DNA from: Anaerolineales bacterium
GTDB lineage: Bacteria > Chloroflexota > Anaerolineae > Anaerolineales > UBA11858
Direction of reading: 5' to 3'
Length of the DNA: 64,000 nucleotides
NCBI GenBank assembly: GCA_041686005.1
Contig: JAWLER010000002.1
Coordinates: 59,837-123,836, forward strand
Below, in pieces: positions 25,823 through 32,098 of the stretch. The translations under genes and the position numbers were made by a program. The notes below the pieces were generated by a model. The model ran no database searches and was not told the origin of the DNA. It saw nothing but the letters and a program-made list of their open reading frames with translations. Every line of letters begins with the position of its first letter. The first letter of the stretch is position 1.

Positions 25823-26614
25823 CTAAAGGTTCAACGTCTTGTCCATCATCTCCGCTACCGCCTGGTACACGGGGGAGTCAAGGCTCAACTCAATGATGGG
25901 TTTTCCACTGAATTCGAATGTCGTCAGGGTGTCGTCGGCGGGGACAACGCCGAGGAAGGGGATCCCGATGTCATCGATGCGCTCCTGTAAAGCAGGAGGT
26001 ATTTCCCCGGGCAAGCGGTTAAGAATCAGATATGTGTTTTCGATATGGATCTCAAGTTCATCTTTGAGTTTTGCGATGCGTTCTGCCGCGATGATGCCCC
26101 GTTGGGTGGGATCGCTGACTACAAACAGGTATTCCACGTCGTTCGTGGTTCGACGGCTGAGGTGCTCCATCCCAGCCTCATTGTCAACGACCACGTATTT
26201 GTAATTTTCACTCAGGGTATCCATGATTTGCCGTAAATTATGGTTCACACCACAGTAACAGCCGGGTCCTTCGGAGCGACCCATGGCGATGAGGTCAAAA
26301 CGCTCGCTTTCCACGAGAGCGGAGTAAATTTCGTAGTTCAAGTAATCGTGTTTGGACATGCCCCCCGCTACGGATCCTACGGCTGCTCCTCCCACAGCGA
26401 CCGATTCCTTGATCTTCTTCAAAAGGTCTTCCCGAATCCCTCCCACCGTCCAACCCAATTCTAACCCCAAGACCATGTGCAGGTTCGCGCTGGGATCGGC
26501 GTCAATGGCGAGGATGGCGTCTTCCTGGTTTAAGGTCAAGTATTTGATGACCATGGCAGCAACCGTGGTTTTCCCTGTTCCCCCTTTGCCGGCTAAAGCG
26601 ATTGTCGTCGTCAT
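25823..26614 (-). CDS. cooC: CooC/AcsF-type nickel-insertion ATPase
   Basis: GKGGTGKTT, IDADP, GPGCYC, DNEAGMEHLSR. Confidence 0.85.
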   Translation of the reverse strand: MTTTIALAGKGGTGKTTVAAMVIKYLTLNQEDAILAIDADPSANLHMVLGLELGWTVGGIREDLLKKIKESVAVGGAAVGSVAGGMSKHDYLNYEIYSALVESERFDLIAMGRSEGPGCYCGVNHNLRQIMDTLSENYKYVVVDNEAGMEHLSRRTTNDVEYLFVVSDPTQRGIIAAERIAKLKDELEIHIENTYLILNRLPGEIPPALQERIDDIGIPFLGVVPADDTLTTFEFSGKPIIELSLDSPVYQAVAEMMDKTLNL

Positions 26615-26658
26615 TTTGAGACAAACTCCTCAACAAGTAAGTGTGGGTCGCGATTTAA

Positions 26659-27444
26659 TTATAATTCCTCGGGGTAGGGTTCTTCTAACTTTTTCGCCAT
26701 CTCCTGGGATGCTTCCCGGAGGGATGGTACGTGATCATAGACGGGCACCCCCAGGCGATCCGCATCCAGCACACCCAGGTCCATGGGCAATGTGCCCAGC
26801 AGCGGCAGTCCGGGAGATTCGGATTTCAGAAAGGCGATCTCCTCATCTTCCCTGATCTTGTTGCCCACCAGCCACAGGCGCGACAAGCCGATGTCATGGG
26901 CTAATTTCTTGATCTGGCGGGCGGTGCCCAAGCTGCGGTGAGTGGGTTCGATGACGATCACCATGGCGTCCACGAAATCCACGGTCGCCCTCCCCAGATG
27001 TTCCACGCCGGCGTACATGTCCAAGATCAAGACATCGTCATCTCGAAAGAGGAGGTGTGTGAAAAGGGTGTGGAGCATGGCGCTCTCCGGGCAGATGCAG
27101 CCCGACCCCCCCAGATCCAGGCCGCCCAGTTCCAGAAGACGGACCCCGCGGTGTTTAAGGCTGAAGCGCTGGGGGAGGTCGTCCACCCGGGGATTGAGGG
27201 TGAAAAATCCGCCGGAAGAGCCTGGTTTAGCGCCGGTGCGCTCTTCAATCAAGGTGTCCATCTCGGCGATGGGGCGAAGTTGCTGGCGGAGTTCCTTTGG
27301 GAAACCAAGCGCACCTGCCAGGCAAGGGGCGGGGTCCGCGTCTGCGACCAATACCTCCCGCCCTTGGTCAGCATACGTTTGGGCCAGGAGAGCAGCGAGG
27401 GTTGTTTTCCCAACACCCCCTTTTCCGCTGATGGCAATTTTCAT
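26659..27444 (-). CDS. cooC: CooC-type nickel-insertion ATPase
   Basis: GKGGVGKTT, GSGCICPE, DMYAGVEHLGR. Confidence 0.85.
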   Translation of the reverse strand: MKIAISGKGGVGKTTLAALLAQTYADQGREVLVADADPAPCLAGALGFPKELRQQLRPIAEMDTLIEERTGAKPGSSGGFFTLNPRVDDLPQRFSLKHRGVRLLELGGLDLGGSGCICPESAMLHTLFTHLLFRDDDVLILDMYAGVEHLGRATVDFVDAMVIVIEPTHRSLGTARQIKKLAHDIGLSRLWLVGNKIREDEEIAFLKSESPGLPLLGTLPMDLGVLDADRLGVPVYDHVPSLREASQEMAKKLEEPYPEEL

Positions 27445-28127
27445 AACTCACGTCCTTGGGTTTGTTTGGTCTTTCCTTGGGCATTATCCGAGGTCAGATG
27501 TCCTTTTTCCCTTAATAATTTCGAGGCGATCATGCTGCCCAGGATGGCGCATCCATCGGTGGGGAGATGATATTTCACCGTGTCTTGAAATAAGATTTGA
27601 TAGGAAGGGGAGATATCCGCGTCCCCTTTCCAGCAGGCGATAAGCGCGGCCACCTGAGGCAGGATTTGAACCCGGTAAGCGATGGAGGCGAAGGGTGTTT
27701 CCTTTCCCCCGATGTTCCGGGCAGCCTGGTGAAAAGTGGCGTAATCCCGCTTGAAACCTTGGAGGATTTTCTTGGATGTGTACCCCTGAAAGGCGGAATT
27801 ATAAAATTGCCCGTCAGGTAGTTCTGAGAATGAGATCCAACCCTGGGACGCTCCGGAACTTTGGGAATCATGAAAGTAATACAAGATCATCGCTTGATCG
27901 ATGATCCGCAACGCCTCTCGGGTGGCTTGGCGGCGGGCCACATAATCCCGGGCGGGAAGGATCGCCGCTTCCTCCCAGTAGGAAAAGTGGAATTGTCCCC
28001 GACCGTCTTCTCCGGGTTGAAAGATGGTATTCGTTTGCAGGGCGAGCTGTTCAGGCTCTCTTGATTTCAACGCTGCACGGAGTTGATCCACTCTTTTTGT
28101 AAGGGGACTTTTCTGGCTGGACATCAC
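27441..28127 (-). CDS. DUF3786 domain protein
   Basis: WISFSELPDGQFYNSAF, W.GD..., ILFQD...LPTD pattern typical of the family; overlaps the cooC start. Confidence 0.7.
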   Translation of the reverse strand: MMSSQKSPLTKRVDQLRAALKSREPEQLALQTNTIFQPGEDGRGQFHFSYWEEAAILPARDYVARRQATREALRIIDQAMILYYFHDSQSSGASQGWISFSELPDGQFYNSAFQGYTSKKILQGFKRDYATFHQAARNIGGKETPFASIAYRVQILPQVAALIACWKGDADISPSYQILFQDTVKYHLPTDGCAILGSMIASKLLREKGHLTSDNAQGKTKQTQGREL

Positions 28128-28357: not shown

Positions 28358-28678
28358 TTATGTGCTGGCCTTCTTGAAAAGGGAGATCAAAGCCACCACC
28401 AGCATCGCACCGGAGACGAAGGCGACCACATACCCTAAGATGTTGGTGACGAGGGAGCCCACATAGGGCACCCCTTGAAATGCGCTTGCGGAGACGTTGA
28501 GGGCGATCGCTGCGATGAGGAAGCCCTTTGTCTCTGCTTCTGTGATGTTGAAGAAACCGACCACCAGGCCCAGGACAGCGAGAACCCAGGTTGTCCAGGC
28601 TGTCTGTAAAAACAACCCTGCCACGACGGCCAGGACCAGTCCTGCGATAAATAACCAGCGTCCGATCTGTTTGTTCAT
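28358..28678 (-). CDS. Small hydrophobic membrane protein (about 4 TM); its RBS is the IS110 insertion site
   Basis: MNKQIGRWLFIAGLVLAVVAG...; AGGAGG RBS at 28685-28690. Confidence 0.75.
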   Translation of the reverse strand: MNKQIGRWLFIAGLVLAVVAGLFLQTAWTTWVLAVLGLVVGFFNITEAETKGFLIAAIALNVSASAFQGVPYVGSLVTNILGYVVAFVSGAMLVVALISLFKKAST

Positions 28679-28704
28679 GAAGTTCCTCCTCGTATGATAT
28701 GTAG

Positions 28705-29020
28705 TAGATGGAGGTACCAACCTACCTCCGGTTGACAAAAAAGGGAACTCTGGCATCCTAGGGGTTGGCCCAGGGAGGGTAGCGCTTTTTCTCCTTGTTT
28801 CACTGCTCAAAGCTGAGCAAATTCTTCTAAAGCATGCGCCCCTCGCCCTGATGGGTACTTCTGACAACGCATCTTGTTCAAACCTTCGTTGGCCGGGAAC
28901 AGCAGGTCCGGGGCACTTACCAATGCAGGTGAAGTTCTGATTGACCGCGAGGCTGTTGATCTCATCAGGGGCCAGGGATTCCCACCTCCTATGGGCAGAC
29001 GGTGTAAGTTCTTAGTGAAA
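28705..29020 (+). ncRNA. Putative bridge RNA in the IS110 left end
   Basis: 5' hairpin GGAGGTA/TACCTCC; stem 28775-28785/28836-28844 enclosing TTTCTCCT and TAAAG, which match the target; second stem CCCTGATG/CATCAGGG enclosing donor-like CGCATC and GCGAG. Ends approximate. Confidence 0.7.
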
Positions 29021-29030
29021 GGAGGTTTTG

Positions 29031-30278
29031 ATGACTAATCCATTGGTGGTGGGCGTAGACATCCACCGCAAAAACAATGTTGTCTCGATGATGGATCAGC
29101 AGGGACAACAAGCAGCCAAGGGGTTCCGGGTTGAAAACAACCGACCTGGCTGCGCCGAATTTGTGCAGCAGGTAGCCCAACAAGTCGTGCAGGGTGACTT
29201 CGATGCCATCCAGATTGGCGCTGAAGCAACCGGCTGGTACTGGTGGCATTTCTTCCAAACTCTTCGTCAAGCCCCACAACTTACTCAATGGCCTGTCCAA
29301 CTCTATGCCTTCAATCCGCGCTTGACAGCCAGTTACAAGAAGACCTTCAGTGATCTCGATCACGCCGATCCGATTGATGCCTTTGTAGTTGCCGATCGCT
29401 TACGGATTGGCCGGGAGTTACCCGTACCCTTCGAACTTGATGAGAGCTACTTCGCACTGCGATTGTTGACCCGGCAGCGTTTTCGACTGGTTCACAATCT
29501 TGCTCGTGAGAAGGCCTATTGTCTGACGGTCTTGTACCTCAAGGTCAGTGAGTATTCTCGCAAAGACAAGAAAGCCTTCTCCAATGTCTTTGGCGCTGCC
29601 AGCCGAGCTGTGCTTCAAGAGTTCGCTTCTATCGAGGAGATTGCGGCTATTCCTTTCGATGAATTGGTCGAATTCATCGATGCCAAAGGGAAACGCCGCT
29701 TTCCCGACCCCGTCAACAATACCCGCAAACTCCGTCAGATTGCTCAGGACTCCTACTCGCTGCCCAAAGCTTTGCAGGAACCCGTCAATACCGTTCTGGA
29801 TCTCAGTCTTCGTCACCTTGCCTTCCTTGAACGTCAAGAGAAACGCATCAATACTGCCATCGCTGAGTGCATCCAACCCATCCAGCATACCCTCGACACC
29901 ATCCCTGGCATTGGCCCTGTTTTCTCCTCCGGCATTATCGCTGAGATCGGAGGCATTGAACGCTTTGACTACAACCAGGCCAAAGTTGCCAAGTATGCCG
30001 GTCTCAAGTGGCGCAGGCATCAGTCCGATGAGTTTGAAGCCCAGGATACGCCAATGACACGCTCGAGAAACGTTTATCTGCGCTATCACTTCTGCGAAGC
30101 GGCTTTTGCGGTCTCAAGGTGCGACCGCGAGTATGCCGCTTACTATCAGCGCAAACATGATGAAGTCCCCAAGCATAAACACAAACGCGCCATTGTCCTT
30201 ACGGCTCGCAAACTGGTACGGCTGGTCGTTCGGCTGCTGACGACCAACCAGCCCTATCGGCCCAGGAGAAGAAGCTAA
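29031..30278 (+). CDS. IS110 family transposase/recombinase
   Basis: DEDD RuvC-like residues (VGVDIH, AEATG, DPIDA), TIPGIG, KYAGL..RHQS catalytic-Ser region, ARKLVR; AAGGAGG RBS. Confidence 0.95.
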   Translation: MTNPLVVGVDIHRKNNVVSMMDQQGQQAAKGFRVENNRPGCAEFVQQVAQQVVQGDFDAIQIGAEATGWYWWHFFQTLRQAPQLTQWPVQLYAFNPRLTASYKKTFSDLDHADPIDAFVVADRLRIGRELPVPFELDESYFALRLLTRQRFRLVHNLAREKAYCLTVLYLKVSEYSRKDKKAFSNVFGAASRAVLQEFASIEEIAAIPFDELVEFIDAKGKRRFPDPVNNTRKLRQIAQDSYSLPKALQEPVNTVLDLSLRHLAFLERQEKRINTAIAECIQPIQHTLDTIPGIGPVFSSGIIAEIGGIERFDYNQAKVAKYAGLKWRRHQSDEFEAQDTPMTRSRNVYLRYHFCEAAFAVSRCDREYAAYYQRKHDEVPKHKHKRAIVLTARKLVRLVVRLLTTNQPYRPRRRS

Positions 30279-30670
30279 CTCATCTTTTCCCTTCGCCATC
30301 CAGGACTTTTCGTCCGCTTATATCTTCTTATGTTGTTTTCTGTTGTTAATGTGCTTTTTCAACAGGTCTGTTCAACTTGTCTTCTTTACTGCTTCCTGCT
30401 GCTTATTTTTAGCCTTGACATTTCACCGCATCGCTTTAAATAGGTGTGGTTGATGTCCTTTCGCTTATATATAACAAAAAGACGGGGAGATTGTTACGGA
30501 CCTGGTCGATGGAGACATATCTCCTCCGGGACATCTCCCGGGGCAGCCAGAGGTGTTGATCTTCACCAAAAGGATCTCGGATTAGTGGTTTGGGCTCAGA
30601 AAAGAGGAATATCCCCCTTCTATTTTTGTGAATTTTGGATGATGTGGAGCATACCCCCTGACCTAGATGG

Positions 30671-30708
30671 AAAAAGACCCTCCGGAATCCCGGGGGGTCT
30701 CAGTTTTT
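30671..30708. terminator. Terminator hairpin downstream of msrB, possibly bidirectional
   Basis: AGACCCTCCGG/CCGGGGGGTCT stem flanked by an A-run and a T-run. Confidence 0.6.
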
Positions 30709-30757: not shown

Positions 30758-31210
30758 TCACTCGAAAAGCGTCAGGTATTCCCCGTAACCCTCTTCTTCC
30801 AGGTCTTCTTTGGGGATGAATCGCAGCGACGCGGAGTTGATGCAGTACCGTTTTCCTGTGGGCTGCGGCCCATCATCGAAGACATGTCCGAGATGGGAGT
30901 CGGCACCTTGGCTTCTGACCTCGGTTCGGCGCATGCCCAGGCTCCTGTCTTCTTTCTTGATGATGCTTTCCTCGTTGAGGGGTTTGGTGAAGCTGGGCCA
31001 ACCGGACCCGGATTTAAACTTGTCATGGGAGCTGAACAAGGGTTCGCCGGACACGATATCCACGTAAATCCCCTCTCCCTTATGATCCCAATACTCGTTT
31101 TTAAACGGCCGTTCCGTGGCGTCTTGCTGGGTGACTTTGTACTGCAGAGACGTGAGCCTCTTCTTCAATTCATCCTGAGAGGGTTTGATGTATTTTTTCT
31201 TATCGGACAT
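30758..31210 (-). CDS. msrB: Peptide-methionine (R)-S-oxide reductase
   Basis: [34 protein letters not shown]. Confidence 0.95.
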
Positions 31211-31212
31211 AG

Positions 31213-31746
31213 TTATTCTCCCCATACCTTGTCAAGGAATGTATCCCGGCCTGAGTTTGACCGGTACGATTTGTAATGAGCGGAGCTCTTGAGGTAAAAA
31301 TTTTGGTGGTAGTCTTCTGCTTCGTAGAACGTGGAGGCTTCCCGGATTTCGGTCACGACGGGCTTGTCGAATCGCCCTGATCCCTCCAGCGATCGTTTGG
31401 AATCCTCGGCCAACCTTTTTTGCTCCTGGTCGTGATAGAAAATGGCTGTCTTGTACTGGGACCCGCGATCGACAAAGGACCCGCCGGGATCGGTGGGGTC
31501 GATCTGTTTCCAGAAGACGTCCAGCAGTTCCGGGTAGGAAATCTGCCTTGGATCGTATGTGACCTGCACGGCTTCGTAATGATCCGTGGTCCCGGTGCTC
31601 ACTTCCTGGTAGGTGGGGTTTTCGGTATGCCCTCCTGTGTATCCGGAGACGACGGATTTCACCCCCTCCTTCTTAAACGGTTTTTCCATGCACCAGAAAC
31701 AACCGCCGGCAAAAGTCGCTTTTTGATATTCCTCAGATTGATTCAT
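31213..31746 (-). CDS. msrA: Peptide-methionine (S)-S-oxide reductase
   Basis: [25 protein letters not shown]. Confidence 0.95.
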
Positions 31747-32098
31747 CTTTTTCCTCTTTGATTTGCGCTTATAGACTGCGTATGTACGATACCATATAGA
31801 AATGTGAACCGCATTAACGATGTATAAAAAACATCTCATTGGGATGGGGCGGTGGGGTGGGGGACCGTTTCTGCCTCTATCAAAGGGTCTAATGCCAAGG
31901 CACGGGGTCCAATTGACCTGGGACCCCGCGGATGTTACACTTTGGTTTTAGTATCTGATTCTGTTCTTGTGAGGGCAGTTTTGGAGATCAAATGTTAGGG
32001 TGATCTTTTCCAGGGTGATGGGACGACGTTTGATCCCTGGTTAAGGGGGGCGCGGATAAGAAAGGGATTCTCTGTTGGGTCCAAGAAGGAGAAGTTGC

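Follow-up and report, generated by a model that had tools for sequence, protein, structure and literature searches.

The 64,000-nucleotide stretch of Anaerolineales DNA analysed here (the window) carries an intact IS110 element of 1,745 bp delimited by two CT cores, the left one at 28689..28690 and the right one at 30434..30435; coordinates are those of the window and features lie on its plus strand unless otherwise stated. A left non-coding end of 340 nt (28691..29030), defined by an alignment of 38 relatives, contains a -10 box, the predicted bridge RNA and the recombinase's own ribosome-binding site (29018-29027). It is followed by the gene encoding an IS110 recombinase of 415 amino acids (29031..30278) and by a right non-coding end of 155 nt (30279..30433), where a -35 box TTGACA (30415-30420) and the left-donor sequence are found. 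Outside the element, on the minus strand, lies the target gene (28358..28678), recognised through orthologues that lack the element and encoding a hydrophobic protein of 106 amino acids with no Pfam or NCBIfam match. Upstream of this gene msrB (SelR) and msrA (PMSR) are placed on the minus strand at 30758-31839, with a terminator-like hairpin near them at 30675-30700. The region 25823-28127 holds two adjacent genes for ParA/MinD-like ATPases (261 and 263 aa) beside a DUF3786 gene; these ATPases are presumably of the CooC/AcsF nickel-insertion type.

The recombinase matched PF01548 and PF02371 with 82 and 63 bits, both above the cut-offs, and NF033542 with 198 bits (cut-off 140). Residues D10, E65, D113, D116 and S332 are invariant in all 22 aligned proteins and align with the catalytic set of IS621, namely D11, E60, D102, D105 and S241 in the numbering of PMC11208158, with just 0.7 bits scored in the N-terminal stretch. 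The residue after the catalytic serine is D in this protein and mostly A in its relatives, not G. An identical protein is present in an uncultured Anaerolineales record. A previous sequence-only reading of this DNA had proposed an IS110 element with an intact transposase frame, and both proposals are upheld by the domain matches, the DEDD and serine residues and the unbroken frame 29031-30278. Its description of a poorly sampled lineage is correct for the host, an uncultured member of the Anaerolineales, but not for the protein, which is matched by at least 3,642 proteins at E<=1e-50 and is about 40% identical to that of a named relative, ISBth166 of Bacillus thuringiensis. The IS1111 group has sub-terminal inverted repeats and an RNA that is usually located downstream of the gene (PMC11187229). 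It was ruled out here, as comparison of the end 40-mers revealed no inverted repeats (the longest exact inverted match is 4 nt) and the RNA lies upstream of the gene. Every feature of the IS110 group that can be checked by sequence is found in this element.

The exact ends had been proposed from a promoter expected at the joint of a circular form, with TTGACA at 30415-30420, 13 nt and CT at 30434-30435 on the right, and CT at 28689-28690, CG and TATGAT at 28693-28698 on the left. The letters agree at both ends. Moreover, evidence unrelated to the promoter confirms the ends: the empty allele, the junctions at a second site and the ends of the relatives all fall at the CT core. The genome contains 289,696 CT sites on both strands, with TTGACA at the matching distance in 74 and a -10 box (at least 5 of 6 bases) in 724, which gives a joint chance of about 6e-7 for the two half-patterns as the product of the two rates.

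Eight of the 23 public runs listed, four of DNA (among them X1, X2 and X4) and four of RNA (among them X8), were examined, all as contigs. X4 (depth 38.6) and X1 (depth 3.4), both of which may be runs from which this DNA derives, contain a contig in which 28688 is followed directly by 30434; 1,745 bases are missing there and two letters are shared. The core is therefore short, the empty site scarless and the target duplication limited to the core. The host gene also occurs without the element in five relatives, as found by a family search of 67 genomes. In DNA runs X2 and X4 the right end of the element enters a different flank, and in X8, which belongs to a separate study, a different flank precedes the left end; these two flanks form one site, C59:1490 in the assembly of this genome (G000), which is empty there and has a CT core too. 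A third left flank, ending at the identical point, is found in X6 and is absent from G000 by exact 17-nt match. Another assembly holds a 1,853-nt contig (L001) made up of the element and exactly 55 nt on each side, running through each CT; this is the shape of an assembly bubble and the contig may derive from the same data.

The occurrence at several sites, along with the intact reading frame and guides, bears out the earlier claim of recent mobility and candidate activity, and from its sequence the element is correctly delimited and probably active. It could instead be a well-preserved copy that is now inactive, with the allele differences due to a mixture of strains and to recombination among old copies. 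This is suggested by the single copy assembled in G000, where neither blastn, tblastn nor PF02371 detected another (the genome is 87% complete and the recombinase gene is its sole assembled IS110 gene), and by the X6 variant, which differs at 14 listed positions. The joint of a circle was also not listed in any of the eight runs; since contigs drop rare forms, this is no evidence of its absence. We consider an inactive copy very improbable, as in X2 and X4 the element enters two right flanks without extra letters, the second site is empty in G000, the reading frame is unbroken, and the catalytic residues and the four guides are all preserved. Two preprints argue that the circle arises by copying rather than by excision (10.1101/2025.10.25.684509; 10.64898/2026.08.31.748434). 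In that case the empty allele has no greater chance of being an excision product than of being an unoccupied chromosome, and it may represent an unoccupied strain.

The flanks are not balanced in every run. X2 shows two right flanks and one left flank only (an unbroken contig covers 28300-30436), and for X4 no second left flank is listed although the depth of the element (109) exceeds that of the left flank (83). This could be due to contig simplification or to a one-sided rearrangement that connected the left flank from C44 with the right flank from C59. Similarly, the related loci L071 and L073, as well as L094 and L095, have in each pair a common left flank and differing right flanks, the result either of chimeric assembly around a multi-copy element or of genuine half-junction events.

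Relatives were collected as 10 loci plus a further 80 (the best 80 of 305); the removal of L001 (same site) and L010 (distant) and the addition of the window locus gave 89 loci. The right end was found in 84 of them and the left end in 78, the 11 misses having at most 311 nt upstream, and one duplicate was dropped to leave 77 left ends. In 84/84 loci the TTGACA of the right end is followed after 13 nt by a CT, which the search pattern had not required. When the two ends are joined, TTGACA, a 17-nt spacer and the TATGAT of the left end (28693..28698, the predicted -10 box, kept in the left ends of relatives) have the geometry of a promoter, as the sequence-only reading had supposed. The pattern TTGACA-17-TATnnT is present across the joint in 73/73 relatives with both ends, a count that is partly built in because TTGACA and TAT..T belonged to the search patterns; the -10 box is TATAAT in 33 of them, TATGAT in 24 and another TATnnT in 16. 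Promoters at the joined ends of the circle have been described for IS621 and ISEc21 (PMC11208160, PMC11187229). By analogy with these two elements, circle formation, activity of the junction promoter, an RNA start near 28705 and strand exchange at CT would be expected here. Contigs of the RNA runs cover the region, with X9 beginning at 28701, X8 entering from the C59 flank and X7 spanning 28406-28761; such contigs reveal no transcript start or strand and could include DNA.

A bridge RNA is predicted at 28705..28985 (ends approximate) from covariation in the alignment of relatives. It comprises a 5' hairpin, a closing stem pairing 28744-28754 with 28971-28983, a target-binding loop and a donor-binding loop. 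The RNA alignment was made from 38 of the 77 left ends, less than 85% identical and without large insertions, and its consensus fold has 51 pairs, 39 of them changing on both sides, the structure having been derived from the same alignment. The covariation score is 0.434, against 0.07-0.14 in slid controls. The RNA of the window alone folds no better than shuffled sequences (z -0.97), and its search against Rfam gave nothing above the gathering score, with two chance-level matches only. Insertions of 25-85 nt, some of them hairpin-like, are found outside the guides in the left ends of L026, L047, L061, L066, L080, L096 and L098.

Four guides are located in the two internal loops, and their order agrees with that reported for the IS621 bridge RNA (PMC11208160, section 7). 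The left target guide TTTTCTCCT (28787..28795), identified by its match to the flank and by covariation, ends in the anti-Shine-Dalgarno word CTCCT and matches the flank at 7/9 positions here and 8/9 at the C59 site. The right target guide TAAAG (28828..28832) is the complement of CT and TTA and matches the right flank at 5/5 positions; among relatives its match at the first base after the core occurs in 65/69 (40 expected), and the association is significant over four bases. The left donor guide (A)CGCATC (28867..28873) matches the CGCATC of the right end, and its variable position agrees in 70/73 relatives (26 expected). Six bases match in this guide and the next three, core included, fail in register (1, 1 and 2 of 73), a break that might be explained by a one-base bulge with wobble. 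The right donor guide CGAG (28948..28951), the complement of CT and CG, was recognised by covariation across relatives, with a match in 77/77 at four positions and 57 expected at the variable one. The donor guides were taken from alignment columns, where L007 and L008 are misregistered and were counted as mismatches.

All four guides covary with their DNA (p=0.0002 by permutation), and for the left target guide this concerns flank positions -6 to -3 (p=0.0002, n=72, permuting DNA among loci); these permutation p-values, like the binomial ones, overstate the significance, as the relatives are not independent and two locus pairs have a common left flank. The bridge RNA that had been claimed for the left end is thus backed in the sequences by a covarying fold and by guides that covary with both target and donor. 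In L007, L078 and L088 the guides differ and the flanks match them, which is natural reprogramming. L007 and L008 form a subclade 57-58% identical, with a target guide ending in CGTCT, and sit in short repeated, palindrome-like intergenic sequence, a natural retargeting off the Shine-Dalgarno sequence. In run X9 a T to C change at 28828, the outer base of the right target guide, is the sole difference listed in the four RNA runs; it would alter the preferred third base after the core.

The target, which the sequence-only reading overlooked, is the Shine-Dalgarno sequence of the host gene. Comparison of the empty and filled states on the gene strand (minus) places the left CT core at the first AG of its AGGAG(G), and the gene reads AGGAGG-AACTTC-ATG in both states. 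The five element-free orthologues are 61-89% identical, and each has CTCC within a few bases of its start codon. In the relatives, the left target guide ends in CTCCT in 72/77, and the left flank with the core reads CTC-CT (the hyphen marking the edge of the core) in 69/77, which is AGGAG on the opposite strand. At 26 of 39 sites an antisense reading frame of 60 aa or more begins with ATG at a distance of 3-12 nt from the core, the other 38 of the 77 having been left out of this count for flanks shorter than 195 nt; 13 of the 39 are without such a frame. As controls, 858 of the 7,147 AGGAG sites in G000 (12%), 19/134 AGGAG sites within the flanks and 2/43 sites in the sense direction of the right flank precede a frame of this kind. 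A promoter directed outward to the host gene was considered from a minus-strand -10-like hexamer seen by eye 4 nt from the core, and was rejected for want of a -35 at the proper distance.

As only 12% of AGGAG sites precede genes, the guide must be supplemented by selection on survivors or by additional context. It is quite possible, without being the reading that we favour, that the guide specifies just the short word CTCCT-T at any site and that the link to gene starts comes from selection against gene-breaking copies. The 5-mer alone cannot give 67% when 12% of its 7,147 sites stand before an ATG frame; guide matches past the 5-mer are loose (38-53/72 at positions -6 to -4), and every observed site is a survivor in populations. 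Nevertheless CTCCT is common to the guides of Chloroflexota and Bacillota, whose proteins are 36-42% identical, and since the guide can change (L007, L078, L088) while the word is kept, the word itself is under selection. Moreover, a short-word guide alters how the bias arises and not what the guide reads.

The relatives in Bacillota display the same target. Among 570 plasmid records with a match, 11 were examined (6 among the best matches and 5 from Enterococcus), representing 10 distinct sites, and at 7 of these the start of an annotated antisense gene is found 9-13 nt from the core. The flanks of the 10 sites read CTC-CT in seven, CTCC-CT in two and AGTC-CT in one, and the CTCCT word is present in the left end of 8/8 records inspected for it. 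ISBth166 and unnamed IS110 elements of Priestia, Alicyclobacillus and Enterococcus are 36-42% identical to the window's recombinase over the whole protein, and share with this element the TTGAC-13 nt-CT and CT-CGTA ends, the left-end CTCCT word and the antisense gene start beside the core, but they belong to a different phylum and differ in RNA sequence. ISBth166 has been assigned to IS110, with no target given in the available part of PMC1626470. In the Enterococcus faecium plasmid NZ_LR135358.1 (L129) a relative lies between two opposite-strand sugar ABC permease genes, at the ribosome-binding site of the second one and inside an apparent operon.

A second, putative promoter-like motif, also overlooked by the earlier reading, is seen within the left end at 28732..28759 as TTGACA-16 nt-CATCCT with TG in the extended position. 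It has counterparts in 72/77 left ends of relatives, and a consensus promoter scan listed no site within the element. The working RNA might be made mainly from this motif in the integrated element, with a start near 28766 and the junction promoter being secondary. Its TTG is invariant in 38/38 aligned relatives and unpaired in the consensus fold, a distance of 16-18 nt to CA(T/A)NCT is kept in 71/77 despite a variable spacer, and both loops still fold when the RNA starts from 28760. In addition, excision of IS621 needs sense read-through (PMC13626964), and as an antisense insertion is denied read-through of that sort, an internal promoter would make sense. Against this, the -10 is weak (3/6) and goes unlisted in the scan, it lies with the spacer inside a covarying long-range stem with two-sided changes in 5/8 pairs, the 5' hairpin further upstream covaries as well, and a similar motif was not found by eye in the Bacillus left ends. 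The covarying stem and the 5' hairpin need an RNA that starts further left and favour a start near 28705, so that predominant use of the internal motif seems quite unlikely. It is conceivable, although still unlikely, that this is a cross-phylum IS110 clade with an anti-Shine-Dalgarno guide that inserts backwards before genes, leaves the ribosome-binding site untouched and has its own internal promoter for the guide RNA of excision. If this were true, the element would be a self-starting, reversible switch between gene and promoter, and would express its bridge RNA in a second manner that has not been described for IS621.

We regard it as highly probable that this is a mobile IS110 element in which a circle-join promoter expresses a bridge RNA of about 280 nt that steers the recombinase antisense into Shine-Dalgarno sequences. 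The element likely moves through a circle, whose joint would form the TTGACA-17-TATGAT promoter for this RNA. The RNA is predicted to direct the recombinase to Shine-Dalgarno sequences in antisense orientation. The crossover is at the first AG of AGGAG, with the consequence that the gene retains AGGAG, spacer and start codon, and the antisense element of 1.7 kb separates the host gene from the DNA upstream of it. The element probably benefits from a target that is abundant, outside reading frames and present in any host.

The element resembles IS621 and ISCro4 (PMC11208160, PMC11208158, PMC13626964; PDB 8wt6, 9t56) in its DEDD RuvC and serine Tnp domains, CT core, lack of inverted repeats, sigma-70 promoter sequence at the junction and left-end RNA with the target loop before the donor loop. 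It differs from them in its weak sequence similarity (E 8e-6), in length (415 versus about 326 aa), in a left end of 340 versus 191 nt with extra stems, in targeting a Shine-Dalgarno sequence and not a REP, and in the second, internal promoter-like motif. A further difference from IS621 as described is that the pairing of the left donor guide does not continue in register across the core.

A closer likeness in target and orientation is found in IS900, an IS110-family element of Mycobacterium avium subsp. paratuberculosis whose target CATG-N6-TCTCCTT is a start codon and ribosome-binding site on the opposite strand and which carries an antisense hed ORF along its length (PMC8141618). In both elements the ribosome-binding site region is targeted and the element is antisense to the gene. 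A hed-like antisense ORF is absent from the present element, the three antisense frames having 15, 22 and 28 stops. IS900 inserts between the ribosome-binding site and the start codon, the site being rebuilt by the end of the element. Here, unlike in IS900, the host gene keeps its native AGGAGG and spacer, with the element upstream. Doran et al. reportedly named this habit of inserting at translation starts in the title of their 1997 article on IS900.

In the available parts of the literature the Shine-Dalgarno targeting of this clade was not found described, only that of IS900; this holds for the accessible text of PMC7823733, PMC12892987, PMC13216065 and PMC1626470, and for that of 10.64898/2026.10.21.760802, 10.64898/2026.08.14.744561 and 10.1101/2025.10.25.684509, while ISfinder and supplementary target tables may list the motif. 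The family and a similar targeting habit are already known, IS900 being the precedent for Shine-Dalgarno targeting. As this precedent exists and the circle-junction promoter of IS110 elements is textbook knowledge, the surprise is moderate. The element is nevertheless a fully mapped and apparently mobile bridge recombinase, with its ends, core and four guides, and it belongs to a large clade distant from IS621 and ISCro4. Guides directed at the Shine-Dalgarno sequence have been retained in Chloroflexota, Bacillus and Enterococcus alike, and the position of the cut spares the translation start. Such insertions would be scored as harmless intergenic events, though they lie between genes and their promoters.
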